Positions 1-20,724 of a DNA stretch of 64,000 bases are shown piece by piece. Where the stretch lies: the sequence record JX128258, one strand, 5' to 3'. Source of the stretch: Escherichia phage ECML-117. The notes beneath the pieces are model-generated. The model saw only the letters and a list, made by a program, of their open reading frames with translations, made no database searches and was not told where the DNA came from. The translations under genes and the position numbers were made by a program. How positions within the stretch are numbered: the stretch's first letter is position 1; every line of letters starts with the position of its first letter.

Positions 1-116
1 GCATGACGCTGACCAGACTTTAATTCAATGGGTAAGTTTTGATAAAACTAGCGGCGGAAAGTATCGCTACTATGGCGACGAGCGATTCACCACTAAATTT
101 TATAAGGTACTCGACC

Positions 117-464
117 ATGGCTCATGTTAAAGATGAAACGCTGTATGGCGCAGAGATCAAGAAGCGTGTGCGTGAGATGGCTGAAGGCGGAACATTGCTA
201 CCGCCGCGAGTCCGCTGCGACCACGTGATTGGCGTATCCGGCACGAAGGAGATGGGCGTGTTGGTGAAAGACATTCGCGTTGGGGATGTCATGGTCATCG
301 ACCGACAAGCGCGAGTCGTTATCCAGGTGCAACCGAACGATGATGAAGGATGTGTCCTATTGAAGCTGAAGAAACTTTCATCCAGCCCAGCAAAGGCAGT
401 CATCAAGAAGGTCTGGCCAGAAGGATTACGCAAACTCATTCGTCGACCCGTGGAGAATGTGTGA
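117..464 (+). CDS. hypothetical early protein (about 115 aa)
   Basis: Track ORF 39..464; in-frame ATG at 117 preceded by AAGG; stop overlaps next start (TGATG). Start uncertain. Confidence 0.4.
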   Translation: MAHVKDETLYGAEIKKRVREMAEGGTLLPPRVRCDHVIGVSGTKEMGVLVKDIRVGDVMVIDRQARVVIQVQPNDDEGCVLLKLKKLSSSPAKAVIKKVWPEGLRKLIRRPVENV

Positions 465-700
465 TGGAAGATTATATTAACGCCATGTATATGGCATTCT
501 ATGTCGTTCAACTTCCCAATGGCGCGGTATTTTATGGCGAGTACACCTTTGACGTTCAATATGGCGTTTCAGAGCGTACAGTGTTAACAAGGGAGTTGAT
601 TGCGGACCTTAAGGACGACATCAAGCGCGTCGCGCGGCAGCAGTTCAATTTGGATGACACAGTCATCGTTCGTATAACCGGAATAACAGAGGTGCAGTAA
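464..700 (+). CDS. hypothetical early protein (78 aa)
   Basis: In frame with track ORF 350..700; ATG at 464 overlaps upstream stop; its stop overlaps next start (TAATG), suggesting translational coupling. Confidence 0.45.
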   Translation: MEDYINAMYMAFYVVQLPNGAVFYGEYTFDVQYGVSERTVLTRELIADLKDDIKRVARQQFNLDDTVIVRITGITEVQ

Positions 701-1029
701 TGACCCGTGATCAGATACTCGCCGCGCATGAGCGTGAAAAGGTCAAAGATATTTGTAAAAGGCACAAATCATTTGCCGATTCTTACGCCTTCTTAAAGTC
801 CTGCATCAAGCAAAATGCAAGGATGGATAACACTGTATTGACATTCAACCTTTTGTCTAACGGAGCAAAGCTTGATGCAATATGCGGCTGCAGATTTGCC
901 AGCGTGATGTTTGAAAGATGTGCTCACAAAGACTCTTTCTTCCATCAAGTCTCTCACCGGACGGGTGATACAAAGATAACAAGGACAAGGCACGAGATAG
1001 AGATTGACCTACTCCACTATGTAAAATGA
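700..1029 (+). CDS. hypothetical early protein (109 aa)
   Basis: Track ORF; start overlaps previous stop; same strand as neighbours. Confidence 0.5.
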   Translation: MTRDQILAAHEREKVKDICKRHKSFADSYAFLKSCIKQNARMDNTVLTFNLLSNGAKLDAICGCRFASVMFERCAHKDSFFHQVSHRTGDTKITRTRHEIEIDLLHYVK

Positions 1030-1053
1030 ATATCAAAAAGGTGAGCTAAATGC

Positions 1054-1082
1054 TTGCCTTTTCTTTTATCAATACTTATACT
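1054..1082 (+). promoter_or_regulatory. sigma70-like promoter (TTGCCT-N17-TATACT) in repeated cassette
   Basis: Hexamers read directly; the same about 80-bp cassette (AAAAAGGTGAGCTAAATGCTTGCCTTTT...TATACT) recurs at 2566-2640; precedes gene at 1115. Confidence 0.45.
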
Positions 1083-1114
1083 CTTTTCATCAAGACTAAC
1101 AAGCAAGGTGAATT

Positions 1115-1432
1115 ATGATTTACTTAGGCATCGACCAGGAACAAGACGAGCGGCTAGGAAGCGTGTTAAACGTAGAATTAAACACAGCTGTACACATCAA
1201 GCCTTGGCCAGAGGCGCACCCCGACGTAGTTGTACCCGTTGCACCTTGGACTCGTTACGTTGCCATTGACAATGATGGCCTTGTCCATTGTTACTCAGAA
1301 AAGCCGACATACTTCGAAAAGTATCACCAATGGCTTATGACTGGTTGGGCAAAGGTGCGATGCTGCGGCGAAGTCGGTCTGGAAGGCTGGAGCTTCAAGG
1401 CTAGTGAATCGTGTGTCGAGGTGCAATTATGA
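1115..1432 (+). CDS. hypothetical protein (105 aa)
   Basis: Track ORF; AAGGTG 7 nt upstream of ATG. Confidence 0.55.
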   Translation: MIYLGIDQEQDERLGSVLNVELNTAVHIKPWPEAHPDVVVPVAPWTRYVAIDNDGLVHCYSEKPTYFEKYHQWLMTGWAKVRCCGEVGLEGWSFKASESCVEVQL

Positions 1433-1647
1433 ATGCCGCGCTGGGTAAGCTGTCTTTCAACAAGCGCAATGAGTTGCGCATGGTGTCTCGTTTTCAATTT
1501 TTATTAAATGCTATGTCAAGCGTTGCCATAGCAATGCTTCGCGCTGATTGCCCTGCTGAAAAGCGTGAGACTTTATTCAAGCGTCACCAACAATTACGAA
1601 ATGCTGCTTATAAACTGCAGCAATATGCTATGGAGTATGCAAAATGA
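1429..1647 (+). CDS. hypothetical protein (72 aa)
   Basis: In frame with track ORF 1411..1647; ATG at 1429 overlaps upstream stop (ATGA). Confidence 0.45.
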   Translation: MNAALGKLSFNKRNELRMVSRFQFLLNAMSSVAIAMLRADCPAEKRETLFKRHQQLRNAAYKLQQYAMEYAK

Positions 1648-1928
1648 AGATGCAAAGATGTCCACATTGCTTGTCCACGATGCGGCTTACTGCTGAAGAA
1701 TATTTACATCACGTTAACGTTTGTGAGGCTAATCCTGAAAATTCGACGCGTTACTATTATCACTATCACGCAGAAGCGGAAGATGGATCAGGCGCAACAG
1801 GAATCGTTACCACGAAAGAAATGGTGATCACCAAAAAGGCGTATGAAAGCCTGCTGGATACAATCAAGGAAGTGTCTGGCAAAGAAATAGTCTGCATTAA
1901 ATCTTTATCTTTCTTGCACGAGGTGTGA
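1644..1928 (+). CDS. small C2HC zinc-finger-like protein (94 aa)
   Basis: Track ORF; N-terminal RCPHC...H...C motif; paralogous to the next gene. Confidence 0.5.
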   Translation: MKMQRCPHCLSTMRLTAEEYLHHVNVCEANPENSTRYYYHYHAEAEDGSGATGIVTTKEMVITKKAYESLLDTIKEVSGKEIVCIKSLSFLHEV

Positions 1929-1929
1929 A

Positions 1930-2307
1930 ATGAGAATGAAGCGTTGTCCGTATTGCCACGATGTGATGCATCTTCCGCATGAAGAGTTCGTGCAGCACAT
2001 GACTAATTGTGATAAGAATCCTAAGAGTGAAAGCCAGCTTGAAGAAAGAATGTTTCTGGTGTCATTCAAGTATTCAGCTTACGATGCACAGCCTGCTTAC
2101 GGTGCACCAAGTGCTGTTTACAGACCATTGAGAAGCGACATTGACTCAATGCAGCTTGCGGCCTGGATTAACGTTAAGGAAGGCATCACTCCGCACTTTA
2201 TCGCGCGCATCCAATCTCAGATTCTACAAATCAAGCGCGAATACAACCGTGACATCACTGAAGTGAAGGTGCTTTCCATTACGCCGATGAATAAGGAGTT
2301 GCCGTGA
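1930..2307 (+). CDS. small C2HC zinc-finger-like protein, paralog (125 aa)
   Basis: Track ORF; N-terminus MRMKRCPYCHDVMHLPHEEFVQHMTNC parallels MKMQRCPHCLSTMRLTAEEYLHHVNVC of the previous gene. Confidence 0.5.
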   Translation: MRMKRCPYCHDVMHLPHEEFVQHMTNCDKNPKSESQLEERMFLVSFKYSAYDAQPAYGAPSAVYRPLRSDIDSMQLAAWINVKEGITPHFIARIQSQILQIKREYNRDITEVKVLSITPMNKELP

Positions 2308-2564
2308 ACAAGGGTCCGATGACTAAGTTGGCCGTTGCCGCGCGGAAGCTTCGACAAGCCGTTAATGGGTCGCGGCCCGTGGTGTTGACACTCGACGACG
2401 CAAAGGCGCTGGTAGAGCTACTCGACGAGCACAACCGACGAAAGAATCTGGAGAACACATTACGCTGGCGCGTCACCCCAGCCGGGCGGGAGAGCGAGAA
2501 GAAAGCTTACTTGCGACGCAAACTAATGTCAGTCGGCCTTCACGAAGAGGCGAAGAAGATTTGA
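2304..2564 (+). CDS. hypothetical protein (86 aa, GTG start)
   Basis: Track ORF; GTG start overlapping upstream stop. Confidence 0.4.
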   Translation: MNKGPMTKLAVAARKLRQAVNGSRPVVLTLDDAKALVELLDEHNRRKNLENTLRWRVTPAGRESEKKAYLRRKLMSVGLHEEAKKI

Positions 2565-2586
2565 TTCAAAAAGGTGAGCTAAATGC

Positions 2587-2614
2587 TTGCCTTTTTATTT
2601 GCCTGTATTATACT
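2587..2614 (+). promoter_or_regulatory. sigma70-like promoter (TTGCCT-N16-TATACT), second copy of cassette
   Basis: Near-identical to cassette at 1033-1082; precedes gene at 2643. Confidence 0.45.
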
Positions 2615-2642
2615 TGTTTCATCAAGCAAAGGAGAATTGATT

Positions 2643-2948
2643 ATGAGTACCGAAGCGATGAAGAAAAAGGTTTCGAATGCTTTGCAAGAAGCCGTGAACT
2701 GTGGTGCCATTAAAGAGTTCAAGGAGACTCAAGAAGGCGGTGAGCCAGTATTCTTCTTTAAGAATAAAAAGGACGGTGTTGCAGCAATCATGTTGTTAAA
2801 GAATAGTGATGACACATTTATCCTTTGCGTCGGAGGATATGACCTTATCGTTGATGATGTATTTATCAATTGTGCCGACGGTCTTAACCCTATGCTGACA
2901 TTTGAGCGTCGCACCATCCGTGTTGCAACGTTTGGAGGGAAGTTATGA
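2643..2948 (+). CDS. hypothetical protein (101 aa)
   Basis: In frame with track ORF 2583..2948; ATG at 2643 preceded by AAAGGAGA; N-terminal region similar to product of 3587..4099. Confidence 0.5.
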   Translation: MSTEAMKKKVSNALQEAVNCGAIKEFKETQEGGEPVFFFKNKKDGVAAIMLLKNSDDTFILCVGGYDLIVDDVFINCADGLNPMLTFERRTIRVATFGGKL

Positions 2949-3130
2949 GTACCGAAGTCCACAACGCATCAGCCTTGGTTAGCTTTTACCGTAACAAAGG
3001 CGTGTCGCTCGTTAAAACGCCGCAAGGGATGTTGTTCTTTGGCACGCGATTCCTGAAAGCATCGGAGCGTGAAACGCTGTCCAAGTTCGACCAGAAAACA
3101 TTGCACGCAGTTTGGAGAAGACAACAATGA
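2945..3130 (+). CDS. hypothetical protein (61 aa)
   Basis: Track ORF; start overlaps upstream stop. Confidence 0.4.
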   Translation: MSTEVHNASALVSFYRNKGVSLVKTPQGMLFFGTRFLKASERETLSKFDQKTLHAVWRRQQ

Positions 3131-3420
3131 GACTAAGCCTAGCGCAAATTCAAACATTGTACCGGATGGAAGACGGAACGCCATACATGCTGCGCGGCGA
3201 CCGCAAGAAGGCTTATGAAAAGCGGCCATCACTGTTTCACGACATCAATGCGCCATCAATCCCTGTCTTATTCCGGTTGGGCCTTGTTGATTGGGCGGCG
3301 CCAGGAGAGAAAGACCCGACGCGCTATTCATCCGTGGTGATGACAAAAGCAGGTCGCGCGGCATTAAAAGAGATTAAAGAAAATATGGCTGGAGGTAAAT
3401 ATTATGACATCAAATCTTAA
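3127..3420 (+). CDS. hypothetical protein (97 aa)
   Basis: In frame with track ORF 3112..3420; ATG at 3127 overlaps upstream stop. Confidence 0.4.
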   Translation: MRLSLAQIQTLYRMEDGTPYMLRGDRKKAYEKRPSLFHDINAPSIPVLFRLGLVDWAAPGEKDPTRYSSVVMTKAGRAALKEIKENMAGGKYYDIKS

Positions 3421-3568
3421 AGCCCGTTTATTATTCATCAAGCCGCATGTGCCATATAAGATTAGTAAGCGCACCTGGCTTAACATTTACAACCGCAGCG
3501 GCGACCGTTGTTTGTACAAGGCAAAGCGGCGCAAGAAGGTATATTCTTACACAACATCCATCAAATAA
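3404..3568 (+). CDS. small basic protein (54 aa), not in ORF track
   Basis: ATG at 3404 with GGAGGT 7 nt upstream; translation MTSNLKARLLFIKPHVPYKISKRTWLNIYNRSGDRCLYKAKRRKKVYSYTTSIK; below the track size cut-off. Confidence 0.4.
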   Translation: MTSNLKARLLFIKPHVPYKISKRTWLNIYNRSGDRCLYKAKRRKKVYSYTTSIK

Positions 3569-3586
3569 GACTAGGAGAAGAATAAA

Positions 3587-4099
3587 ATGAAAATCGAACA
3601 ACTCGAAGCAGTATTGGAAATGGCCGTAAAGGCAGGCGCAATCAAAAGCTATCGTCGCGAGAAGTCAGATAGCGATAAGGTGTTTTGTCGCAACTTCTAT
3701 ATCGTTGGCAACCTTAACGACCACTACACCATCGAGTGGTATACTAACGTGATGACCCTTAAGTCGCGCACCATGGAGCTTTGGTGTGATGACATCTGTC
3801 TTTCGAATACTCACCCAAGCTATGATGTCGCCCTGGCATTCTATCACGGAAGCCGTCAACCTGTCGCCCACATCGGTGAGAAGCATGAGCATCTTAAGGC
3901 ACGACCAGAGGAATCAATGGAAGGTTGGATTGAATGGGCTGGCGGAAAGAATCCGGTGCCTGGTAAGATGGTCGAATACAGGCTGCGCAATGAAGGGGAT
4001 AAAGTGCTGTCAAGACTCTCTGACCATCTGCACTGGGCCCATATAGGAGGACTAAAAGGTAGTGACATCATTGCTTATCGGGTCGTTAAGGAGGGATGA
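3587..4099 (+). CDS. hypothetical protein (170 aa)
   Basis: Track ORF; AGGAGAAG upstream; N-terminus resembles product of 2643..2948 (AVKAGAIKSY vs AVNCGAIKEF). Confidence 0.55.
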   Translation: MKIEQLEAVLEMAVKAGAIKSYRREKSDSDKVFCRNFYIVGNLNDHYTIEWYTNVMTLKSRTMELWCDDICLSNTHPSYDVALAFYHGSRQPVAHIGEKHEHLKARPEESMEGWIEWAGGKNPVPGKMVEYRLRNEGDKVLSRLSDHLHWAHIGGLKGSDIIAYRVVKEG

Positions 4100-4548
4100 T
4101 GGGTAAACGCCTTATCGCCGCTGGTTGGGCCATACCGAAGTGGGGTCATCGTGCGCATTACTTTGACGAAGGAGAAGTGCAAAGCCTTTGTGGTCGCGCA
4201 ACGTATTTCGGTGATGAGCGCGTCAGCGGCGATTATATCGACTCGCTTTTAGGCAAAGGTGATTGCAAGAAGTGTCAGAATATATTAAGGGATATTCTTA
4301 CGCAAAAAGGATTGCTTGAGCTTGATGAATCGGAAGAAGTAATTGAACTTAAGCTGGAAGCCAATCACCTTATTAATATGTTCAAGAACTATTACGCAAC
4401 TAATATGCGCTCAAAAATGAGCGAGGAAGTAATAGAAAAGGTGTTCACCTACAATCCGCTAAGGATGAATAAAACCAAATTGAAGAAGTTTAATATAATG
4501 TTAAGGAAAGAATTTAAAAGGCTAGGGGTGAAGAATTTTATATTTTAA
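4096..4548 (+). CDS. hypothetical protein (150 aa)
   Basis: Track ORF; start overlaps upstream stop. Confidence 0.5.
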   Translation: MMGKRLIAAGWAIPKWGHRAHYFDEGEVQSLCGRATYFGDERVSGDYIDSLLGKGDCKKCQNILRDILTQKGLLELDESEEVIELKLEANHLINMFKNYYATNMRSKMSEEVIEKVFTYNPLRMNKTKLKKFNIMLRKEFKRLGVKNFIF

Positions 4549-4566
4549 TAGTGATTAATGTTAAGA

Positions 4567-4590
4567 GGGCCGATTGGCCCTTTTTGTTTG
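4567..4590 (+). terminator. rho-independent terminator (GGGCC-gatt-GGCCC + T-tract)
   Basis: Hairpin and TTTTTGTTT read directly after the stop at 4548. Confidence 0.6.
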
Positions 4591-4874
4591 CCCGTGGGGT
4601 GTGAGTCTTTATTATCGGATAAAGCGATTGATTTGTGTAAATCTATTAGAGGATGGTGGGGAATGAGGATTGTGACGTGATTTGTGTGTCTTGAATATGT
4701 GTGCGGATTTGGAAGAATATTGTACTGTGGTGCTGTGGGATTGGAGAGGGAATCACTAGGTTTTGGGGCGTGTACCGTGGTGTGTGGGCCTGTAGGCTGC
4801 GCCGTCTCTGGGATTGCCGCCTGAAATTTAAAAGGAGATATAGTTAGCTGGCTAACCTTACGTATAGAATTTAA

Positions 4875-5162
4875 GCGTATAATGACGTAAGATTTGGACC
4901 TATCCGTAGTTCACTCCACACACTTCTATGGTGCGCCGCGACTGGGTTCAGTGGTACATCTTACGGATGATACGGATGATACGCGTCGCCGCTATACTTT
5001 ATACAACTTTGAAAAAAACAATTAACTCCATTTTGAATTAATTTAAATTAATTTTTTTCTACATCCTCATACTTATACTAAACTTATGTTTATACGTATT
5101 ATCCGTAAGATATAAGTAAAAACAAAGACTTGCGGCAATACGGATGATACGTCATGATACGC
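4875..5162. promoter_or_regulatory. iteron/AT-rich control element, copy A
   Basis: GCGTATAATGACGTA at 4875-4889; tandem 9-mers in CTTACGGATGATACGGATGATACGCGTCGCCGC at 4960-4992; AT-rich tract 4993-5100; inverted ATCCGTAAG at 5101; ACGGATGATACG at 5140-5151. Homologous to copy B at 20906-21180. Confidence 0.5.
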
Positions 5163-5389
5163 TTCAACCAGCCAGCAGCGGCTAAGTCATTGATTTGCAT
5201 AACAAGCGGCGAAAGGGATGGATTTCTTTTATACGTATCAAACAGTACACCACGCACCACGGTCCGCTATTCATTCAGCACTATGATTTGTGTACTTTTA
5301 CAGCCAATTTGAACATCAATCTGCACTTGAATATAATGTTCATTCATTGTATAATTCACACTATTAATTTGCACTATGGGATTTGCACT

Positions 5390-5863
5390 ATGAGTCAAGA
5401 TTATGTAGCAATGCCTGAAGACTTTGAAGACCCGCGATTTGCAGAGCATAATCAGGCATTATTCGATGAGTTCATTGACCTTGTTATTCAGGGCCATGAC
5501 ATGCGCGCAGCTTTTGCACTAGTATTTGGCATGGAGGTTGCGACCGATAACTACACTGGCCAGCGAATCCTCTGCACGCAACGCAATCCGTACTACAAGA
5601 TGCGCTACAAAAAGCGTATGGAAGAGATGCCATTGAAGGAATTGTGGAGTGTAAAGAGTTCCATCCACAATTTAGTGAAGCTTGTGCGTGATCCAGAAGT
5701 CGCAGCATCAGCCAAGCTTAATGCCATTCGTGAACTGAATATCATCTACGGCATCACGATGATTGATGAGAATGGCAATAGTAAAATGGGCCGTTCCATG
5801 GACGATTTCTACAAGGATTTTGGAGAGGCAGCCAAAGAGGGTGAGCAATTCTCCCGCCACTAG
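5390..5863 (+). CDS. hypothetical protein (157 aa)
   Basis: In frame with track ORF 5195..5863; ATG at 5390 after two TATAAT-like boxes; the start codon overlaps a copy of the ATTTGCACTAT motif. Confidence 0.5.
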   Translation: MSQDYVAMPEDFEDPRFAEHNQALFDEFIDLVIQGHDMRAAFALVFGMEVATDNYTGQRILCTQRNPYYKMRYKKRMEEMPLKELWSVKSSIHNLVKLVRDPEVAASAKLNAIRELNIIYGITMIDENGNSKMGRSMDDFYKDFGEAAKEGEQFSRH

Positions 5864-5882
5864 CCAATTTGCACTATAAAAC

Positions 5883-5916
5883 GGCCCTAGAACACATTTT
5901 CTCCACTTCTAGGGCC
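5883..5916. other. perfect 10-bp stem-loop (GGCCCTAGAA-N14-TTCTAGGGCC)
   Basis: Read directly; lies 20 nt after the stop at 5863; no clear T-tract on the plus strand. Confidence 0.5.
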
Positions 5917-6261
5917 ATCGGTAATACGACGGGGAAGGTTACAACCATAAACGCTTTAGAAAGTGTATTATTATAAGTCATCTTTTAGTCACTTTACGTA
6001 ACAATTTACGACCTTCCGCCGTCCAGTCGAACGACTCCACCAGCAGATTTGCACTATAACCTAAGACGATGCGCCCTTTCTCGTTATCGACCCGCCAACA
6101 AGTCTCGAATAGCATTCGATTTGCACTATTAACTATCGCCGCAACGCGCGTTGGGTAAGCGCAATTTGCACTATGGTCGTAAAGGGATAAGGTGCGACCA
6201 CTTCCGATGGACAACGTAGCGATGAGAATAAGCGTATTCATAAGCCACCAATTTGCACTAT

Positions 6262-6284
6262 GAAAAGCGACCCCGAAGGGCCGC
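6262..6284 (-). terminator. putative rho-independent terminator for minus-strand gene 6292..6918
   Basis: Minus-strand GCGGCCC-ttcg-GGGTCGC hairpin (one mismatch) followed by TTTT. Confidence 0.4.
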
Positions 6285-6291
6285 CATTCGA

Positions 6292-6918
6292 TTAGATAAT
6301 CTGGAATGTGTAGGACTTGTTGCCGAACTCAAAGGTCAAGCGTCCAGCTTCTTTAAGCTTCATGCGGAAGCGAATGTGCTTGCTATCCGGTAATCCCAGC
6401 GCGGCGAACGCTACGCGGACCGATTTGAACTCGCCTACACCTTCGACCATGACGCCGTTACGGGTGAGACGCTTTTGCGCCACTTCCTTGTTATCCCAAC
6501 TTTTTGCAATACCTTCGCTATTCGAACGGCGATGGGAAGGACTGGCAATTTTATCCGCGCCAACCGGAGCATCATTCAGGCCGCTTTTAACGAAGGCTTC
6601 ATATTCTTCGTCGGTCATCGCGTCGAGTTCTTCCTGGGTCGGCTCCGCTTTTTTAACGACCGCACGCGCTTTGTGCGTTTTTACATCGCTGGACACTTCC
6701 TCGCGCGGCTTCGCGTCTGGGATGGGCGATTCGTTGGACGGCTCATCGAGCGCGTTTAAGGACTCGATTAACGCGATGACGCGAGTCTCAGCGGTGCGAC
6801 GGTCCGCAAACTTCTTAATCGGTTTTGAGCCGGAGTTAGCGTTATAGAATGCAACGAGGTCGGCGGTCTTAGTTGCGATAACGTCGCCGCTAGTAGAGAA
6901 ACGATTCAAGCTAACCAT
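6292..6918 (-). CDS. hypothetical protein (208 aa) with acidic central linker
   Basis: Track ORF; AGGAG upstream on minus strand; antisense plus-strand ORFs are Ser-rich and low-complexity; CpG-rich composition. Confidence 0.6.
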   Translation of the reverse strand: MVSLNRFSTSGDVIATKTADLVAFYNANSGSKPIKKFADRRTAETRVIALIESLNALDEPSNESPIPDAKPREEVSSDVKTHKARAVVKKAEPTQEELDAMTDEEYEAFVKSGLNDAPVGADKIASPSHRRSNSEGIAKSWDNKEVAQKRLTRNGVMVEGVGEFKSVRVAFAALGLPDSKHIRFRMKLKEAGRLTFEFGNKSYTFQII

Positions 6919-6987
6919 AATAAACTCCTAGTTTGGGAGCGGCGTTAACGACCTATTCGCTAACTCATCCCGTCCCGATATGAGTAC

Positions 6988-7015
6988 ATTATAATATAGT
7001 GTAGAAAAAAGTAAA
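6988..7015 (-). promoter_or_regulatory. sigma70-like promoter (TTTACT-N16-TATAAT) for 6292..6918
   Basis: Minus-strand read GTGCTTTACT...TATAATGTACTCATATCGGGACGGGATGAGTTAGCGAATAGGTCG is homologous to the plus-strand module upstream of 7554. Confidence 0.45.
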
Positions 7016-7059
7016 GCACTTTTTCGATAAAAATGCGATAAATTATTTTATCTTTTTTC

Positions 7060-7087
7060 TTTACTTCTTCGTACACTCGCGTATACT
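7060..7087 (+). promoter_or_regulatory. sigma70-like promoter (TTTACT-N16-TATACT) for 7144..7446
   Basis: CTTTACTTCTTCGTACACT shared with promoter at 7458; followed by TGTTTATATCGAGACGGG leader. Confidence 0.45.
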
Positions 7088-7143
7088 TGTTTATATCGAG
7101 ACGGGCGATGGCCCTTCCTTCTACTAGCATCGGGAGCTTTATT

Positions 7144-7446
7144 ATGACTACTTTAATCTCTTCCATCCTTACTTACGACGAAGACCGTTTAACCGTTCGC
7201 TCTCTTATCGCCGCCGTTAACGCGGAACTAGAATCTAGCGCCATTAAGGTCCGCGCGGTCGCCTTCATCGGCCTTTCCTTCGACGATATGAAGTACGCCG
7301 AACGTAGCGCCATCCGCTTCGCGAAGACCGACGACGAAGCCGTTACCCTTATCGAGACGGTTACGCCGCGCGGCGAAGCGTTAATTATCGTCGAGTATAT
7401 CGACGTAGAAGGCGATAAATCTTATAAACATTTTATCGCAGAATGA
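7144..7446 (+). CDS. small acidic protein (100 aa)
   Basis: In frame with track ORF 7087..7446; ATG at 7144 after GGGAG; codon usage rich in CpG, almost no CTG/CAG. Confidence 0.55.
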   Translation: MTTLISSILTYDEDRLTVRSLIAAVNAELESSAIKVRAVAFIGLSFDDMKYAERSAIRFAKTDDEAVTLIETVTPRGEALIIVEYIDVEGDKSYKHFIAE

Positions 7447-7457
7447 CGAAAAAGTGC

Positions 7458-7486
7458 TTTACTTCTTCGTACACTAAGACTATAAT
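7458..7486 (+). promoter_or_regulatory. sigma70-like promoter (TTTACT-N17-TATAAT) for 7554..7844
   Basis: Hexamers read directly; duplicated module of 7060-7087. Confidence 0.5.
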
Positions 7487-7508
7487 GTTTTATATCGAGA
7501 GGGGATGA

Positions 7509-7529
7509 GGTAGCGAATAGGTCGCTACC
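7509..7529 (+). other. leader stem-loop (GGTAGCGA-atagg-TCGCTACC) in 5' UTR
   Basis: 8-bp perfect stem between promoter and RBS; a related imperfect copy lies in the minus-strand leader of 6292..6918. Confidence 0.45.
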
Positions 7530-7553
7530 CTCCCGACTAACTAGGAGAATATT

Positions 7554-7844
7554 ATGATTACTTTAGCCGCTATCCGTTCCGCTCGCGTCGAAACTTCCGA
7601 AAACTCTAACGTATTTGGCGAAACCTTAGAGAGCGTTTATCTCTCTAACGTAGACGCAACTATCGAGTCTATTTATGAGCCGATCAACTTTCTCGACCTT
7701 TACAAGTATCGCGACGAGGACATCGTATCCTACCGCGTAACGATTAACGGCTTCGTTTATACGATCACCGAAATCGGCGGCGAATATATAGCTGTACCGC
7801 AACTCGGCGGCGAAGTAACTTACTTTAAAATCGTAAGCCTTTAA
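7554..7844 (+). CDS. small acidic protein (96 aa)
   Basis: Track ORF; AGGAGAA upstream; same unusual codon usage as 7144..7446; similar size and N-terminus (MITLAAI vs MTTLISSI). Confidence 0.6.
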   Translation: MITLAAIRSARVETSENSNVFGETLESVYLSNVDATIESIYEPINFLDLYKYRDEDIVSYRVTINGFVYTITEIGGEYIAVPQLGGEVTYFKIVSL

Positions 7845-7855
7845 GGAGAAGAAAG

Positions 7856-8065
7856 ATGACTAATATGAATAACTCTCTTAACGCGCGCGCCCATCGCACC
7901 GCCGTAATCGATATGTTTCGCGAGCTTAAGGAATTATGCGATAATATGAACGCGATGTTATCCATCGGCGGCTGGGGATACGAAGAAGAAGTTAAATACG
8001 CGGTTATGCGTCGCCGTCGCGATAACGTCCTTGGACAAATTAAACGCGCCGGATTATTCCTTTAA
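7856..8065 (+). CDS. hypothetical protein (69 aa)
   Basis: Track ORF; AAGGAGAAGAAAG upstream; same codon usage; followed by terminator. Confidence 0.55.
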   Translation: MTNMNNSLNARAHRTAVIDMFRELKELCDNMNAMLSIGGWGYEEEVKYAVMRRRRDNVLGQIKRAGLFL

Positions 8066-8091
8066 TTATAATCACCCACCGTTACTAATAG

Positions 8092-8116
8092 GCCGCGCTT
8101 AGTCGCGGCTTTTCTT
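8092..8116 (+). terminator. rho-independent terminator (GCCGCG-cttagt-CGCGGC + TTTTCTT)
   Basis: Read directly after the stop at 8065. Confidence 0.6.
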
Positions 8117-8586
8117 CGTCCCTATCTCAATGCGCTTCTCCGCGAAAATTCCTTTATCCTTCCCTTCGTCGTCGCATAATCTTCGTCGAGATGCTCCTTA
8201 GTTCGCATAACGGGTATTACGTTAAATGGAGAACATCGCGTAAGTCCTTGTTTTATATAGACACCTATATCGGACCGTTAAGGCGGGTCGCGTAAGTCGT
8301 TGTTTTATAAAGGCGCAAAACTTTCCCTTCGTTCCGAACTAAAACGAGAAATATGCGGACCCTTCGCCCGAAAATAGTACGCATGCGAAATTACCGACAT
8401 CTAGAATAATCCCCGCCGATATTATCCTACACGCAATCATTAGCCTTCGAATCATTATGCTTCATATTATTATGCATCGAATCATTCGCTTTCGAATTGT
8501 AACGCTGGAAACTGTAACGGCGATTGATTATTGCGTTCGTGTGGTTTTTATGGCATGGGTCTTTTGGTGCGTTTTGGTACTTGATG

Positions 8587-8709
8587 AAATTTGCAGTACA
8601 CTAATCAAAATACGACACATTTGGTCCACTAACTTTTCAAAGAAAAAGTCCTAGACAGTACCGTACTATTTTGTGCCCACAGTAAATTTGCAGTACACTC
8701 CTGCGCGGC
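8587..8709 (+). repeat. two copies of 16-bp motif AAATTTGCAGTACACT
   Basis: Exact copies at 8587-8602 and 8694-8709; shares the ATTTGCA core with the 11-bp array at 5367-6261. Confidence 0.7.
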
Positions 8710-8767
8710 AGGCAAAGAAAGGGCCGCCACAGCGACCCACGATTCACGGTTAAATCAGCAACACCCA

Positions 8768-9178
8768 CTATTCGCTCTTATGGGCATCACCAAAGCCATC
8801 CGCAATCTGGCTGATCAATGATTCAATGGACACAGTTTTACCAATTGATCGAGCGGTAATAGCAAGCATATTATCAATCAAACCATGATTGGATGCATAT
8901 GGTCCAGGTTTTGAATCATCTTCAGGACAGCCAAAAAGCTGGTCGCGCAAACTTTCGAGAGAACGCTCAATATTTTCCAGCTTCTCTTCTAAATCAGATT
9001 GGCGACGTAAAACCCATGTTAAGTCTCGGTTGCCGACTTCCAACCCATCAGAATCGCAAGCTGGAACGTCAATTTTGATGCTGCCACCAAAGGCCATTCC
9101 GCTGCCTTTAGTATATGTGTTGTGAATAGAATCATTCTTATTTGACATATCATTACCTTTCATGAGGGTGATTAACAA
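8768..9178 (-). CDS. hypothetical protein (136 aa)
   Basis: Track ORF on minus strand; start may be an internal Met. Confidence 0.5.
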   Translation of the reverse strand: MLITLMKGNDMSNKNDSIHNTYTKGSGMAFGGSIKIDVPACDSDGLEVGNRDLTWVLRRQSDLEEKLENIERSLESLRDQLFGCPEDDSKPGPYASNHGLIDNMLAITARSIGKTVSIESLISQIADGFGDAHKSE

Positions 9179-9208
9179 TAACTATAATAAAGCCGCATAG
9201 CGCGGCAT

Positions 9209-9469
9209 TCAAATCGGTTTGTTAATTGTAACGATTGGATTCATCAATCGATACCAACTGTGCTGGGTCGCCGGATACGGTCGAGCCAATGATACCCATC
9301 TGCTGAAAGAACTCTGAATAAACTTCCTTCCAGTATCTACGCGCTGCTTTCTGAGCCTGCCTTTGCGCTTGAAGCTTTTACCTTGAAAGATGAAACGGTC
9401 GCTTGCCGCTCGATACTCCACCACACCTTCCAGCCATTGTAAGAACGCTACTGATTCATTCTGATTCAT
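9209..9469 (-). CDS. hypothetical protein (86 aa)
   Basis: Track ORF on minus strand. Confidence 0.4.
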   Translation of the reverse strand: MNQNESVAFLQWLEGVVEYRAASDRFIFQGKSFKRKGRLRKQRVDTGRKFIQSSFSRWVSLARPYPATQHSWYRLMNPIVTINKPI

Positions 9470-9476
9470 GTTAACC

Positions 9477-9932
9477 TCAATATTTTAATAAGAAAGCACC
9501 CAACCAACTTTCCTCAATCTCGCGGCCAGTAGCCACACGGTCGGTCTTTGCTATGGGTCTGGATTCGCCGCAAGGTAATCCGTCTTGCAGTTGTGTACTA
9601 TTGCCAATTCTCACCATGACCTTTCCATCAGGGTCGATATAAGCGCGACAACCCATGATTTCGAGTCGTTGTAGACACTGGCGAATCGTTTTCAGCCTTT
9701 CACCGGACCGGATAGAGCGCGGTCGCGACCGCTGACCGTTCTTATTCACTGTCCGCTTAACGACCGGAATCTCATTGGTGCGTTTCGCTTTCGGTCGGTA
9801 ATAGGCTTCTTCGCCAGGAGTCGCACCTGGCGTCAATTCACGCTTGAGCGCCTTTTCAATATCGATGATCATAATTATGCCGCAGCAGCGTGGATGATTA
9901 CGTAAACTATGCCAAATAGCGCGGCAATACAT
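9477..9932 (-). CDS. hypothetical basic protein (up to 151 aa)
   Basis: Track ORF; the Cys/His-rich N-terminal extension looks unnatural, so the start may be the internal Met at 9872. Confidence 0.45.
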   Translation of the reverse strand: MYCRAIWHSLRNHPRCCGIIMIIDIEKALKRELTPGATPGEEAYYRPKAKRTNEIPVVKRTVNKNGQRSRPRSIRSGERLKTIRQCLQRLEIMGCRAYIDPDGKVMVRIGNSTQLQDGLPCGESRPIAKTDRVATGREIEESWLGAFLLKY

Positions 9933-9965
9933 ACCGTGCCCCAGAATGCAAAGCGTCGTGACTCT

Positions 9966-10187
9966 TTATCCATTGTCCACCGCTCCAATATCCTTCAAGA
10001 ACTTGTGCAAGTCACCTTTCTTATTAAGCTTTTGCATAGTTTTGATATCATCAAGTGATATGCCTTGATCGCTTTGTTGTTTGTCAATGCAGACAATGCC
10101 GCCTTTCTTGGCCTTGATTGTCATGCCTTTGGCTTCAATACTTTTTACGAAATCGGACAATAATTTAATTTCCATAATACACCTCAC
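9966..10187 (-). CDS. hypothetical protein (73 aa)
   Basis: Track ORF on minus strand. Confidence 0.4.
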   Translation of the reverse strand: MRCIMEIKLLSDFVKSIEAKGMTIKAKKGGIVCIDKQQSDQGISLDDIKTMQKLNKKGDLHKFLKDIGAVDNG

Positions 10188-18944: not shown

Positions 18945-19796
18945 ATGGCTTTTAAAGCTTCGAAAAAACGTGAACGCCGCTCACCCGATAGAATTGGGCG
19001 CGGCAGTCCGATAATCCCATCAAACGCTATTGCGATGGCCTACCGTCGTGAGATGAAAGGTCTTTGCTATGCGATGATTGATGACTATCAGGCAGGAATT
19101 TCAGAGTGGCTTGAAAAGAAGCAGGTGCAGAAGTTCTTTGCGCAAGACTCTGCTGATTCAACATTCCAAACTCTTATGAAACGTCTGCAGCTGAAATGGG
19201 CAAAGGCGTTTGCTCGTGTTGGGTCGAAGATTGCCGCTGATTTTATCAAATCGGTTGAAAAGGGTGCTACTTCTGCTACATTCGCCAGCCTTAAGTCCGC
19301 AGGCATAGAAGCGCCAAAGGCCACATATAACAAATTCGTTGAGAACACTCTTAGAACAAGCGAGACGTTTAACACGACTCTAGTGACTAAGGTCGGCGAG
19401 GATATTCACAACAGAGTGTACGAAGCAGTCATGCTTTCGCTGACTTCGCCCGACCCAGCCCAGCAAGGCACGTCAGGCATTCAGGCGGCGTTGCGAAACG
19501 TAAAACACTTCTCTGCAAAGAGAGTCGACTTAATCGCTAAAGACCAGACAAGCAAATTGTATTGCGTTCTAAGCGATGAAAGGATGCGCCAGAATGGAGT
19601 CGAAGAATTTGAGTGGGCGCACTCAGGAGCAGGAAAGGAGCCGCGAATCTCTCATGAACACGTCGACGGAATGAGATTCAAACTTGATGACAAGCGCCTA
19701 TGGGAAGTTGGCGGCGAATTGAAGTTCAAAAAGGGTGACATCGGTCCTCCTGGATGGGCAATACACTGCAAGTGCAGAAAAATACCAATCATTTGA
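18945..19796 (+). CDS. head morphogenesis protein (minor capsid, Mu F/SPP1 gp7-like)
   Basis: In frame with track ORF 18882..19796; position immediately after portal; basic N-terminus. Confidence 0.5.
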   Translation: MAFKASKKRERRSPDRIGRGSPIIPSNAIAMAYRREMKGLCYAMIDDYQAGISEWLEKKQVQKFFAQDSADSTFQTLMKRLQLKWAKAFARVGSKIAADFIKSVEKGATSATFASLKSAGIEAPKATYNKFVENTLRTSETFNTTLVTKVGEDIHNRVYEAVMLSLTSPDPAQQGTSGIQAALRNVKHFSAKRVDLIAKDQTSKLYCVLSDERMRQNGVEEFEWAHSGAGKEPRISHEHVDGMRFKLDDKRLWEVGGELKFKKGDIGPPGWAIHCKCRKIPII

Positions 19797-19803
19797 GGTC
19801 ATT

Positions 19804-20724
19804 ATGACGATACCAATCAGCACGTTTCCTCTATCTGGACAAACGCCAGTATTGCCTGCTGTATATGCTAACGGCTTGGCGATTGTTTCAGAATTTACAT
19901 CTGATAAAAACCTGATTGTTCCATTGAGTCCGCCATTGGCGTCTGGTTACAACTCAGTTGGTCAATTCTTTATGATCGGTAATGATGGCGATTCTACCAG
20001 CAAGCCGAATCTGACACTTTCAGTTCCCAAAATGAACATAACAGACGTGCAGACTGGTTTAACTGCATCTACAATCACCATCGCTTTTGGAGAAGCAGTG
20101 ATTATAGGTATGGAGTCTGGAGGGTCAAAGAATGCTGTCGCCGTTAAAGTGGTAAAATCAAGCGGCAACCAATACACGTTACCAGCGGCAACGGCTTCTG
20201 TTCTCGGCGGCGTCAAGATAGGAAGTGGCATAAGTGTTGCAGGCGACGGTACAATTAGTGTTACTCAATACTCGTTACCGATTGCATCAGCATCAACCTT
20301 GGGTGGCGTAAAAGTAGGAACGACACTATCAATTGATGGTTCTGGAGTTCTCAATGCTGCTGCAAGCAATGTGCAAAACACAAGCAATAGTGTAAGCAAT
20401 CCTCCGACAACTCTGGTGAATCTGGCAACATTAAACCTGCCTGCAGGGAAATGGCTTGTGACAGCAAGTCAGTTGACTGTAGCAACAGAAGGAGTTCAAG
20501 CGAATACCGGAATTACAGTAAAATTGTCAACAAGTAATTCAGATATTACGGATGATGCATTTACGATGTCGGCTGGCATTCGGGCTGCAGGTCGTTTCGG
20601 CGGCAATATTCCAACAAAGATAATTACTCTTGCCGCGCCTGGCAACGTGTATCTAAACTATCAATGCACAGACGCATTGACATCTACCGTTTACGGACAG
20701 ATCACCGCAATTAAGTTGAACTAA
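19804..20724 (+). CDS. virion protein with fibre-like repeats
   Basis: In frame with track ORF 19735..20724; repeated LGGVKIGSGISVAGDGTISV and LGGVKVGTTLSIDGSGVLN units. Confidence 0.5.
   Translation: MTIPISTFPLSGQTPVLPAVYANGLAIVSEFTSDKNLIVPLSPPLASGYNSVGQFFMIGNDGDSTSKPNLTLSVPKMNITDVQTGLTASTITIAFGEAVIIGMESGGSKNAVAVKVVKSSGNQYTLPAATASVLGGVKIGSGISVAGDGTISVTQYSLPIASASTLGGVKVGTTLSIDGSGVLNAAASNVQNTSNSVSNPPTTLVNLATLNLPAGKWLVTASQLTVATEGVQANTGITVKLSTSNSDITDDAFTMSAGIRAAGRFGGNIPTKIITLAAPGNVYLNYQCTDALTSTVYGQITAIKLN

Follow-up and report, generated by a model that had tools for sequence, protein, structure and literature searches.

Escherichia phage ECML-117 (sequence record JX128258) was analysed over a stretch of 64,000 nucleotides, referred to here as the window. 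The window is that of a Wifcevirus-type E. coli myophage, and 27 phage records, among them Ro157lw, Mansfield, WFC, WFH and Bas98-101, match its positions 5000-10000 with an identity of 90-99%. Within the direct terminal repeat (DTR) of this phage lies a bounded zone that is strongly depleted in the dinucleotide pair CA/TG and that corresponds to most of an island described in an earlier note at 5864-8760. We read this island as the early-gene zone of the 3.5-kb DTR, an unprotected and first-expressed leader that would be kept invisible to an activity reading CA/TG at the DNA level. This is the reading that we favour, while holding it somewhat short of probable. The repeat and the zone are positioned as follows.

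5030..8564, no strand: direct terminal repeat, one copy of which is in the window, placed from the two ends of the Ro157lw record, which share 3533 bp at 100% identity.
5864..8450, no strand: CA/TG-exclusion zone, with a core at 6919-8450 and a weaker shoulder at 5864-6900.

Across 5864-8760, rho(CG) is 1.83 (1.12 in the window), rho(TA) is 1.12 (0.68) and rho(CA/TG) is 0.59 (1.15). The dinucleotide distance of this region from the window average is 0.159, compared with a mean of 0.052 (standard deviation 0.025) for all 2.9-kb windows, and the windows that overlap it give the top dinucleotide deviation in the whole 64 kb. The earlier note had claimed an island of sharply different dinucleotide usage, dense in CG and TA. 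The first of these claims is borne out, and the raised rho values agree with the second, but the CG and TA density proves secondary to the exclusion of CA/TG. The sliding-window check of GC content that it had proposed revealed nothing aberrant, as values in the region (0.44-0.51) are normal with respect to the remainder of the window (0.40-0.53). As to extent, the aberration is strongest at about 6300-8450 and a shoulder reaches back to 5864, whereas 8450-8760 has ordinary composition and does not belong to the island.

The core at 6919-8450 contains 67 CA and TG dinucleotides, where equal-sized windows elsewhere contain 226 +/- 12 (minimum 188). This corresponds to an exclusion of about 3.4-fold, with a z-score of -11 relative to base composition. 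Each 200-nt step of the core harbors 1-7 CA or TG, the normal number being 10-20. In successive 300-nt bins that start at the right end of the DTR, rho(CA/TG) takes the values 0.69, 0.41, 0.43, 0.27, 0.27, 0.47, 0.74, 0.88 and 0.75, and it reaches 1.3-1.6 beyond these bins, in terS, the gene of the small terminase subunit.

With the rest of the window as reference, CAG/CTG is the most depleted trinucleotide class (7 observed versus 63 expected, 9-fold). It is followed by CAA/TTG (4.5-fold), TCA/TGA (3.7-fold), CCA/TGG (3.3-fold), CAC/GTG (3.1-fold), GCA/TGC (2.8-fold) and ACA/TGT (2.4-fold). The drop is a mere 1.4-fold for ATG/CAT, whereas the other seven of the eight classes containing CA/TG drop 2.4- to 9-fold. 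None of the trinucleotides without CA/TG is down more than about 1.3-fold, and the words enriched in the zone are those with CG or TA. When dinucleotides are accounted for, only GATC, CCGG and AATT are low among 4-mers; no single word explains the pattern, and this analysis rules out a longer hidden motif as the source of the signal.

The exclusion is equal on both strands and extends to non-coding DNA, and CA and TG are equally depleted on the sense strand of each gene. At the codon boundaries of the zone gene that encodes a protein of 100 amino acids (aa), CA is found 4 times where 12.8 are expected, and TG is absent where 10 are expected. The corresponding counts for MTx_004, a gene of the Serratia phage MTx described below, are 1 versus 9.7 and 1 versus 15.1. 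In control genes CA/TG is in excess at codon boundaries, and terS is above expectation there. Since the depletion is equally strong across and within codons, and as strong in non-coding DNA, an artefact of codon usage or of amino-acid composition is ruled out; the exclusion acts at the nucleic-acid level. The predicted folding energy of the zone is ordinary and gives no sign of selection on RNA or single-strand folding, which is rejected as a cause on this ground. No Rfam family was matched, the non-coding right part of the DTR at 8117-8564 included.

The encoded proteins bear the mark of the exclusion. The 22 leucine codons of the plus-strand genes are distributed as CTT 10, TTA 8, CTC 3 and CTA 1, with neither TTG nor CTG, the preferred leucine codon of E. 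coli, which agrees with the leucine bias reported in the earlier note. The near absence of CAG and CTG that it had reported for 7144-8065 was likewise recovered (1 CAG and 2 CTG in 922 nt). His, Gln, Cys and Trp are nearly gone from the small proteins, two of which keep few non-start Met. Most simply, the exclusion of CA/TG is the primary signal and the excess of CG and TA its by-product, because a single transition converts CA/TG into either of them and would usually be synonymous at the third codon position. As a supporting consideration for CA/TG being the pair excluded, we reason that it would be the cheapest of the non-self-complementary dinucleotide pairs to purge from coding DNA: the price would be paid only in the rare residues His, Gln, Cys, Trp and Met, and every NCA/NTG codon but ATG has a synonymous transition partner.

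The DTR comprises, from left to right, an AT-rich end, terS, an array of ATTTGCACTAT motifs, the depleted zone and about 115 bp of ordinary sequence. Its limits are consistent with the PhageTerm-derived repeat of Mansfield (1-3673), whose left end is identical and whose last aligned block would place the right end at about 8565 by extrapolation. For WFC and WFH, the reported terminal repeat measures about 3.7 kb (PMC6563267). The depleted zone thus stops about 115 bp short of the right physical end of the virion DNA, and in the virion it makes up most of the last 2.7 kb at the right-hand end.

All 27 Wifcevirus records carry the region in synteny, 25 of them covering at least 80% of the query, and the relatives differ within the zone by three insertions or deletions. 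The gene of a 69-aa protein is missing in Mansfield, Bas99, WFC and WFH. Other modules are present in some Wifceviruses only, namely an extra gene (364-394 bp) that sits at 6932 and, in F13, a segment of 303 bp, and these optional modules are as depleted in CA/TG as the rest of the zone. Serratia phage MTx, a Myosmarvirus, encodes an ortholog (MTx_006, 39% identity) of the 208-aa protein of the zone. In the PhageTerm-defined repeat of MTx itself, the same position has a rho(CA/TG) of 0.22-0.24, a rho(CG) of 1.9-2.0 and a rho(TA) of 1.2-1.3. The partner genes differ in MTx, but the promoter and the start of the leader are the same (CTTTACT-N17-TATAAT-N4-ATATCGA). Since the optional modules are equally depleted and MTx is depleted at the same place, the exclusion belongs to the position and not to particular genes. 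An IMG/VR contig of 66,854 bp that encodes an identical 208-aa protein displays the same compositional zone. A search of IMG/VR with the early promoter recovered the zone only on Wifcevirus and Myosmarvirus contigs, the other six matches being chance matches on low-GC contigs. The zone was not seen in the parts examined of the Pseudomonas 14-1, PS44, Xanthomonas XcP1 and Salmonella PCSE1 genomes.

The position of the zone can be compared with published restriction data. Wifceviruses are highly sensitive to EcoP1_I even though their EcoCFT_II sites are equally many (BASEL paper, PMC11990801). Bas98-100 plate with an efficiency of about 1 on EcoCFT_I, EcoRI (0.3-0.9), EcoRV and EcoCFT_II, and form no plaques on EcoP1_I (PMC11990801, S1 Data). 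For T5-like phages, it is sites in the first-step-transfer terminal repeat, and no others, that lead to restriction (PMC10644984). We deduced that the EcoCFT_II site is CACAG: no other 5-mer agrees with the numbers published for both Bas99 (92) and T7 (81), and counting in the same way also reproduces the published numbers for AGACC, the EcoP1_I word, and for EcoRI and EcoRV. CACAG is found 94 times in the window and never in the DTR, where 5.2 are expected, while the DTR contains five AGACC in both orientations. In Bas99, the DTR contains 0 of 19 EcoRI, 0 of 4 EcoRV, 0 of 3 EcoCFT_I and 0 of 92 CACAG sites, and 6 of 89 AGACC sites. The DTRs of eight genomes contain no CACAG or a single one, 4-12 AGACC in both orientations, and CAGCAG on one strand only. 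The site maps match the plating of Bas98-100, in a correlation across the five systems plated, EcoKI not being among them, and restriction appears to count only inside the repeat. We propose that EcoP1_I kills and EcoCFT_II is harmless because only EcoP1_I has (active) sites inside the repeat.

A second and weaker layer of depletion concerns palindromes and does look like classical avoidance. With dinucleotides taken into account, palindromic hexamers number 32 in the zone versus 55 expected (z -3.1) and 34 versus 48.7 in MTx (z -2.4), whereas the controls give z-scores of -1.0 and -0.1; GATC is low in the zone. The absences of EcoRI, EcoRV and Eco29kI from the zone are each non-significant alone, with about one site expected. 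Among 15 real enterobacterial systems, defined as those whose recognition sites are named in the sources used, 5 have sites in the DTR, compared with 8.0 +/- 1.5 in control windows. The CA/TG-free zone of MTx, a phage of Serratia marcescens, carries four EcoRI sites where about one is expected, and the E. coli phage repeats are without EcoRI in all eight genomes; no SmaI site (CCCGGG) occurs in the 27 kb of MTx examined. There are hints here of a host-specific layer of site avoidance atop the common exclusion of CA/TG. Restriction avoidance does not convincingly explain either the choice of CA/TG or the uniformity of its exclusion.

If the zone is an unprotected leader, its exposure and expression would precede those of all other DNA and come before protective functions exist, following the logic of the first-step-transfer region of T5, and for this reason it would have to survive unprotected. 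Its products would probably protect the remainder of the genome. The zone would then be an Achilles heel under DNA-level selection for unreadability, kept free of the words that some DNA-targeting activity reads during the unprotected interval. By analogy with other phages, the right end probably enters first, since the depleted stretch abuts this end with depletion fading with distance, and since packaging from near terS on the left would leave the right end last in and first out. Candidates for the reader include restriction or defence systems with CAG/CTG-type sites, or another host or phage activity that reads CA/TG. The exclusion is uniform, symmetric and resolved to 2-3 bp, which suggests a reader with a very short site, be it a host defence or an anti-host activity of the phage itself. 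In its most specific form, the proposal is that an unrecognised reader of CA/TG, above all of CAG/CTG, acts on exposed DNA in the first minutes, as a defence of Enterobacterales hosts or as a weapon with which the phage destroys its host, and that two phage genera write their first-expressed genes without those words; we regard this form as possible but rather doubtful.

Several observations weigh against the leader being kept unreadable. The CA/TG content of terS is normal despite its location in the DTR, and the first-step-transfer region of T5 displays only a faint CA/TG trend (rho 0.80). CA/TG is present in only 6 of the 15 real recognition sites, no more than chance, and AGACC is not avoided (5 in the DTR versus 4.55 in controls), so that the repeat is not broadly purged of real sites. 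Nor does a reduced vocabulary confer a generic stealth towards any restriction specificity; this possibility was computed and is not supported. The share of specificities that find a site in the zone is 0.281 for palindromic hexamers (0.283 elsewhere), 0.631 for 5-mers in both orientations (0.646 elsewhere) and 0.206 for type-I-like patterns (0.220 elsewhere). Finally, polymorphism gave a weak test of ongoing selection: CA/TG-creating transitions are seen at 29 of 771 opportunities versus 54 of 959 for neutral ones, in a comparison that is underpowered and confounded by mosaic alleles.

The same short-site signal would also be expected if the phage were avoiding a weapon of its own. An early phage product would act on host DNA at short CA/TG sites (CAR/YTG) that its own zone lacks; such a product might be a nuclease, a shut-off protein that coats DNA or a molecule that poisons a host enzyme, and the rest of the genome would arrive, or become protected, later. 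A strong, uniform and strand-symmetric signal at 2-3 bp fits such a reader better than restriction sites of 5-13 bp do, and even the real promoters shun the consensus TTGACA in favor of TTTACT. The feature is moreover common to two genera that share the early cassette and absent from T5, and the predicted model of the conserved 208-aa early protein resembles a protein that binds DNA. We consider this self-immunity unlikely, however, as no candidate enzyme was found, the early proteins being without Pfam or PDB relatives, and as the normal CA/TG of the bulk of the genome forces one to assume an extra protection step. Nor was a DNA-modification pathway in evidence, the relevant genes being limited to ThyX, a PNKP-like phosphatase and a short-chain dehydrogenase. 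Hypermodification of DNA in a CA/TG context was rejected on the same ground, and would not explain resistance to EcoRI and EcoRV because their sites are without CA/TG. A reader of RNA is quite improbable. It would require that early transcripts avoid CA/UG to escape an endoribonuclease or to drop internal NUG starts, and it would suit the dense transcription from strong predicted promoters on both strands and the presence of TG in every start codon (ATG, GTG, TTG). A one-strand reader should nevertheless leave an asymmetry, so that the equal loss of CA and TG from the sense strand counts against it; the untranslated stretch at 8117-8450 beyond the terminator is depleted as well, and folding energies, as mentioned above, are ordinary.

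In a local mutational bias, a context-specific transition pressure from CA to TA or CG would arise from copying, recombination or transcription, and the restriction phenotypes would be a by-product. CG and TA are indeed the exact single-transition neighbours of CA/TG, the DNA concerned is duplicated, which loosely recalls repeat-induced point mutation (RIP) in fungi, and the evidence for ongoing purifying selection among relatives is weak. Yet the combination of unchanged GC with raised CG is unlike deamination-type processes, the terS part of the repeat and the functional motif copies within the zone are unaffected, and the depletion of palindromic hexamers beyond dinucleotide expectation is not predicted by a dinucleotide bias. 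The state furthermore persists between genera whose ortholog is just 39% identical, and among current polymorphisms the changes that create CA/TG exceed those that destroy it (29 to 10), the opposite of a CA/TG-destroying pressure. Because of the GC, terS, palindrome and polymorphism results, a purely mutational origin is unlikely, and we judge local bias as the explanation of the zone to be improbable. The earlier note had seen in the island a horizontally acquired or separately evolving accessory cassette. A compositional regime of its own and small variable genes are indeed observed; the acquired accessory cassette is not. Acquisition of a cassette with the composition of a foreign donor could draw on the strikingly atypical dinucleotide signature, on several small genes without relatives outside the genus and on the variable gene content of the zone, but we find it hardly credible. 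In place of patchy presence, all 27 relatives carry the island and only internal modules vary; GC is normal, the 208-aa gene is core to the lineage, and no integrase or transposase was found with PHROG and Pfam, nor any mobility gene at the borders. The same anomaly occupies the same place in Myosmarvirus, and no donor genome was found. The note had itself named synteny and like composition among relatives as grounds for giving up acquisition, and since the island is syntenic and compositionally alike in the relatives, that reading fails. We know of no organism that combines a rho(CG) near 2 with a rho(CA/TG) near 0.25.

The genes and signals of the zone, whose unprotected-leader role we favour, are listed below.

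5978..6241, minus strand: open reading frame (ORF) of 87 aa, annotated in relatives, without PHROG or Pfam family.
6262..6284, minus strand: intrinsic terminator of the 208-aa gene, a hairpin (free energy, dG, -18 kcal/mol) followed by UUUU, z-score -4.0 versus shuffles.
6292..6918, minus strand: ORF of the conserved 208-aa early protein.
6988..7015, minus strand: predicted promoter P1 (TTTACT-16-TATAAT) for the 208-aa gene, with leader and ribosome-binding site down to 6919.
7060..7087, plus strand: predicted promoter P2 (TTTACT-16-TATACT) for the 100-aa gene, from sequence pattern and repeats.
7144..7446, plus strand: gene of an acidic 100-aa protein (isoelectric point, pI, 4.65), without family match.
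7458..7486, plus strand: predicted promoter P3 (TTTACT-17-TATAAT), with a leader hairpin at about 7498-7538 (leader dG -21.3) and the ribosome-binding site AACTAGGAG.
7554..7844, plus strand: gene of an acidic 96-aa protein (pI 4.23), restricted to Wifcevirus.
7856..8065, plus strand: gene of a basic 69-aa protein, phrog_10377, labelled 'transcriptional regulator'.
8090..8111, plus strand: intrinsic terminator that closes the early operon on this strand (dG -12.7), with a U-rich tail after the hairpin.

A single sigma70 promoter-leader cassette is present three times, in front of the 208-aa gene, the 100-aa gene and the pair of 96-aa and 69-aa genes. Its leader starts with ATATCGAGA(C/G)GGG, and a stable hairpin together with AACTAGGAG is found in the two longer copies, the leader of the 100-aa gene being shorter than the other two. 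The P1 leader repeats the 7447-7560 cassette in inverted orientation. All four genes announced in the earlier note are present, the 208-aa gene on the minus strand and three genes (100, 96 and 69 aa) on the plus strand. Of the dedicated promoter that it had assigned to each gene, three sigma70-like promoters stand and not four, as the 69-aa gene begins 12 nt past the 96-aa gene and shares its promoter. The two rho-independent terminators that it had placed here both fold well (dG -18 on the minus strand and -12.7 on the plus strand), and they close transcription in both directions. Since the phage encodes no RNA polymerase of its own, the zone genes are host-transcribed; they are presumably immediate-early. 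The status of the 87-aa ORF as a gene is uncertain because three plus-strand motif copies lie in it; these are ATTTGCACTAT copies, each coding for Ser-Ala-Asn within this minus-strand ORF.

No early protein matches a Pfam family, in agreement with the lack of recognisable motifs in the earlier note, and profile searches of the PDB revealed no relatives. Structure prediction, which the note had proposed, was productive for one of the proteins and not for another. AlphaFold2 (AF2) models the 208-aa protein with a confident helical N-terminal domain, a disordered charged linker and a confident C-terminal domain, the latter with the order helix-strand-helix-helix-strand-strand that is found in winged-helix domains. 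The fold leads obtained for this model are winged-helix and SAP-like, both weak, and on the strength of the model the protein probably binds DNA. The AF2 model of the 96-aa protein (pLDDT 52) is unusable and too poor for a structure search. The 208-aa gene is core to the whole Pbunavirus-like lineage: homologues of its product occur in 354 phage records, of which 295 are from Pseudomonas phages, mostly Pbunavirus. In a single record, that of Pseudomonas phage Ocp-2 (PQ790662.1, 53081-53689), the Pbunavirus homologue is labelled 'deaminated base DNA N-glycosylase', a label that received no backing from the profile, PDB or fold searches. MTx encodes a second, longer paralogue with an N-terminal extension (MTx_016, 344 aa, MTx 19605-20639), which is located outside the terminal repeat in DNA of normal composition.

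The N-terminus of the 96-aa protein is largely invariant (most of residues 1-38), and residues 39-60 and 81-90 are hypervariable. Its alleles are 64-100% identical, down to 64% in genomes that are otherwise 93-96% identical, a pattern of variation typical of an arms race. This protein is a paralogue of the extra F13 gene product (28% identity, E 3e-5). The small, fast-evolving proteins of the zone, of which two are acidic, are strong candidates for anti-defence functions of a new kind. The two acidic ones would be putative counterparts of the DNA mimics Ocr and ArdA, which they resemble in being small and acidic (pI 4.2-4.65), in being placed behind the first promoters and in belonging to a phage that is broadly resistant to restriction; no sequence similarity or confident structural similarity to these mimics was found.

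Further features mark the ends of the DTR and the edges of the zone.

4955..5114 (4955-4977 and 5092-5114), no strand: inverted repeat, together with ATACGGATGATACG repeats, on either side of the left DTR end, from a repeat search.
5367..6261, plus strand for all copies: array of seven exact copies of ATTTGCACTAT, starting at 5367, 5381, 5867, 6047, 6119, 6164 and 6251, from an exact-motif scan.
5390..5863, plus strand: terS, inside the DTR, annotated in Mansfield with reference to an HHpred match; PHROG phrog_4783.
8117..8564, no strand: right, non-coding part of the DTR, in which CA/TG stays scarce until about 8450, without Rfam match.
8236..8312, no strand: 25-nt direct repeats TCGCGTAAGTC(C/G)TTGTTTTATA at 8236 and 8288, 52 bp apart, in the CA/TG-poor non-coding part of the DTR.
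8587-8602 and 8684-8699, plus strand: two copies of AAATTTGCAGTACACT just outside the right end of the DTR, about 25 and 120 bp beyond it.

The arms of the inverted repeat are 87% complementary, and its midpoint at about 5034 nearly coincides with the DTR end at 5030, which sits between three copies of ATACGGATGATACG (window 4955-5151). Together they may form a candidate cutting structure for the terminase. The ATTTGCACTAT array, whose exact motif was not found elsewhere in the 64 kb, is a candidate terminase (pac-like) recognition array; two of its copies overlap the start codon of terS. The earlier note had described repeats of an ATTTGCA core as bracketing the island. Repeats do exist, but as a one-strand array next to terS, mostly within the left part, not as a flanking pair or insertion scars. 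At the same position in MTx, after the terS homologue, a different motif is found in three copies. A ATTTGCAGTAC variant is present at 8589 and 8686, with no exact copy elsewhere in the window. The AAATTTGCAGTACACT pair, likewise not found elsewhere in the 64 kb, may mark a boundary or a cutting site. The 25-nt direct repeats at 8236 and 8288 occupy the position that the injection-stop signal has in T5. A Chi sequence, GCTGGTGG, is located at 6037-6044 on the minus strand, about 1 kb from the left genome end, where it adjoins one of the motif copies; it is oriented for recognition by RecBCD entering at the left end, and the 64 kb contain four Chi in total. To the left of the repeat, a 240-bp non-coding block (window 4560-4800) is extremely strand-asymmetric and GT-rich on the plus strand, with 23-33 TG and 0-1 CA per 200 nt. 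This block is not conserved in Ro157lw, where homology begins only at 4958. Comparable GT-rich or CA-rich blocks occur in MTx at the inner edge of the repeat and after the terS homologue.

Among known systems, the zone is reminiscent of the first-step-transfer region of T5 and BF23. Both contain early genes of mostly unassigned function in a long DTR with host-type promoters, both have a non-coding, repeat-bearing stretch at the inner edge, and both go with a broad resistance to restriction except for sites in the repeat (PMC10644984; here from site maps versus plating). Of the T5-type features, the long DTR, three predicted host-type promoters for small early genes and, as a correlation, the restriction-site rule are thus found in this phage. 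In contrast to T5, homologues of A1, A2 and dmp were not detected, the zone proteins being without Pfam match and assigned to unnamed PHROG families only; the repeat is 3.5 kb long and includes terS, where that of T5 measures 10 kb; and the phage is a myovirus, for which a two-step DNA transfer would be supposed by analogy. The stretch of T5 at 3000-6000 (A2 to T5.010) has a rho(CA/TG) of 0.80-0.88 and a rho(CG) of 1.2-1.6, versus 0.97-0.98 overall.

Classical avoidance of restriction sites, including that at the leading end of T7, shares with the zone the depletion of palindromes, the low GATC, the one-stranded CAGCAG and the absence of active sites for systems that fail to restrict. It differs in that here a whole dinucleotide pair is gone from a bounded zone of 2-2.6 kb, to the point of reshaping amino-acid usage, while possible recognition sequences present are not fewer and the pattern is not tuned to the real sites checked. 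Fungal RIP also lowers CpA/TpG and raises TpA in duplicated DNA, whereas here CpG is up, GC is unchanged, only part of the repeat is hit and the genes are intact and conserved. To our knowledge, no RIP-like machinery is known in phages.

The terminal repeat, the restriction resistance and the T5 rule are already known. The CA/TG-exclusion zone, its conservation in two genera and the site-map account of EcoP1_I versus EcoCFT_II appear to be new, and no prior description of the CA/TG anomaly was found in the literature searched. This account offers a testable answer to the puzzle raised in the BASEL paper, where EcoCFT_II is ignored and EcoP1_I is lethal with about 90 genomic sites each. The zone points to an unrecognised DNA reader of very short words, or to a design rule for DNA that has to survive unprotected in a bacterial cell, which would be useful for phage engineering and DNA delivery. 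There is a real chance that the zone reports a DNA-reading activity with a very short site. If so, it would serve as a natural reporter of DNA targeting of a new kind, directed at very short sites, and would show how 'stealth' leader DNA can be written. Our results suggest that the T5 scheme, in which only the leader is vulnerable and the remaining genome is protected afterwards, would extend to a family of myoviruses, whose relatives in Pbunavirus are widely used in phage therapy.

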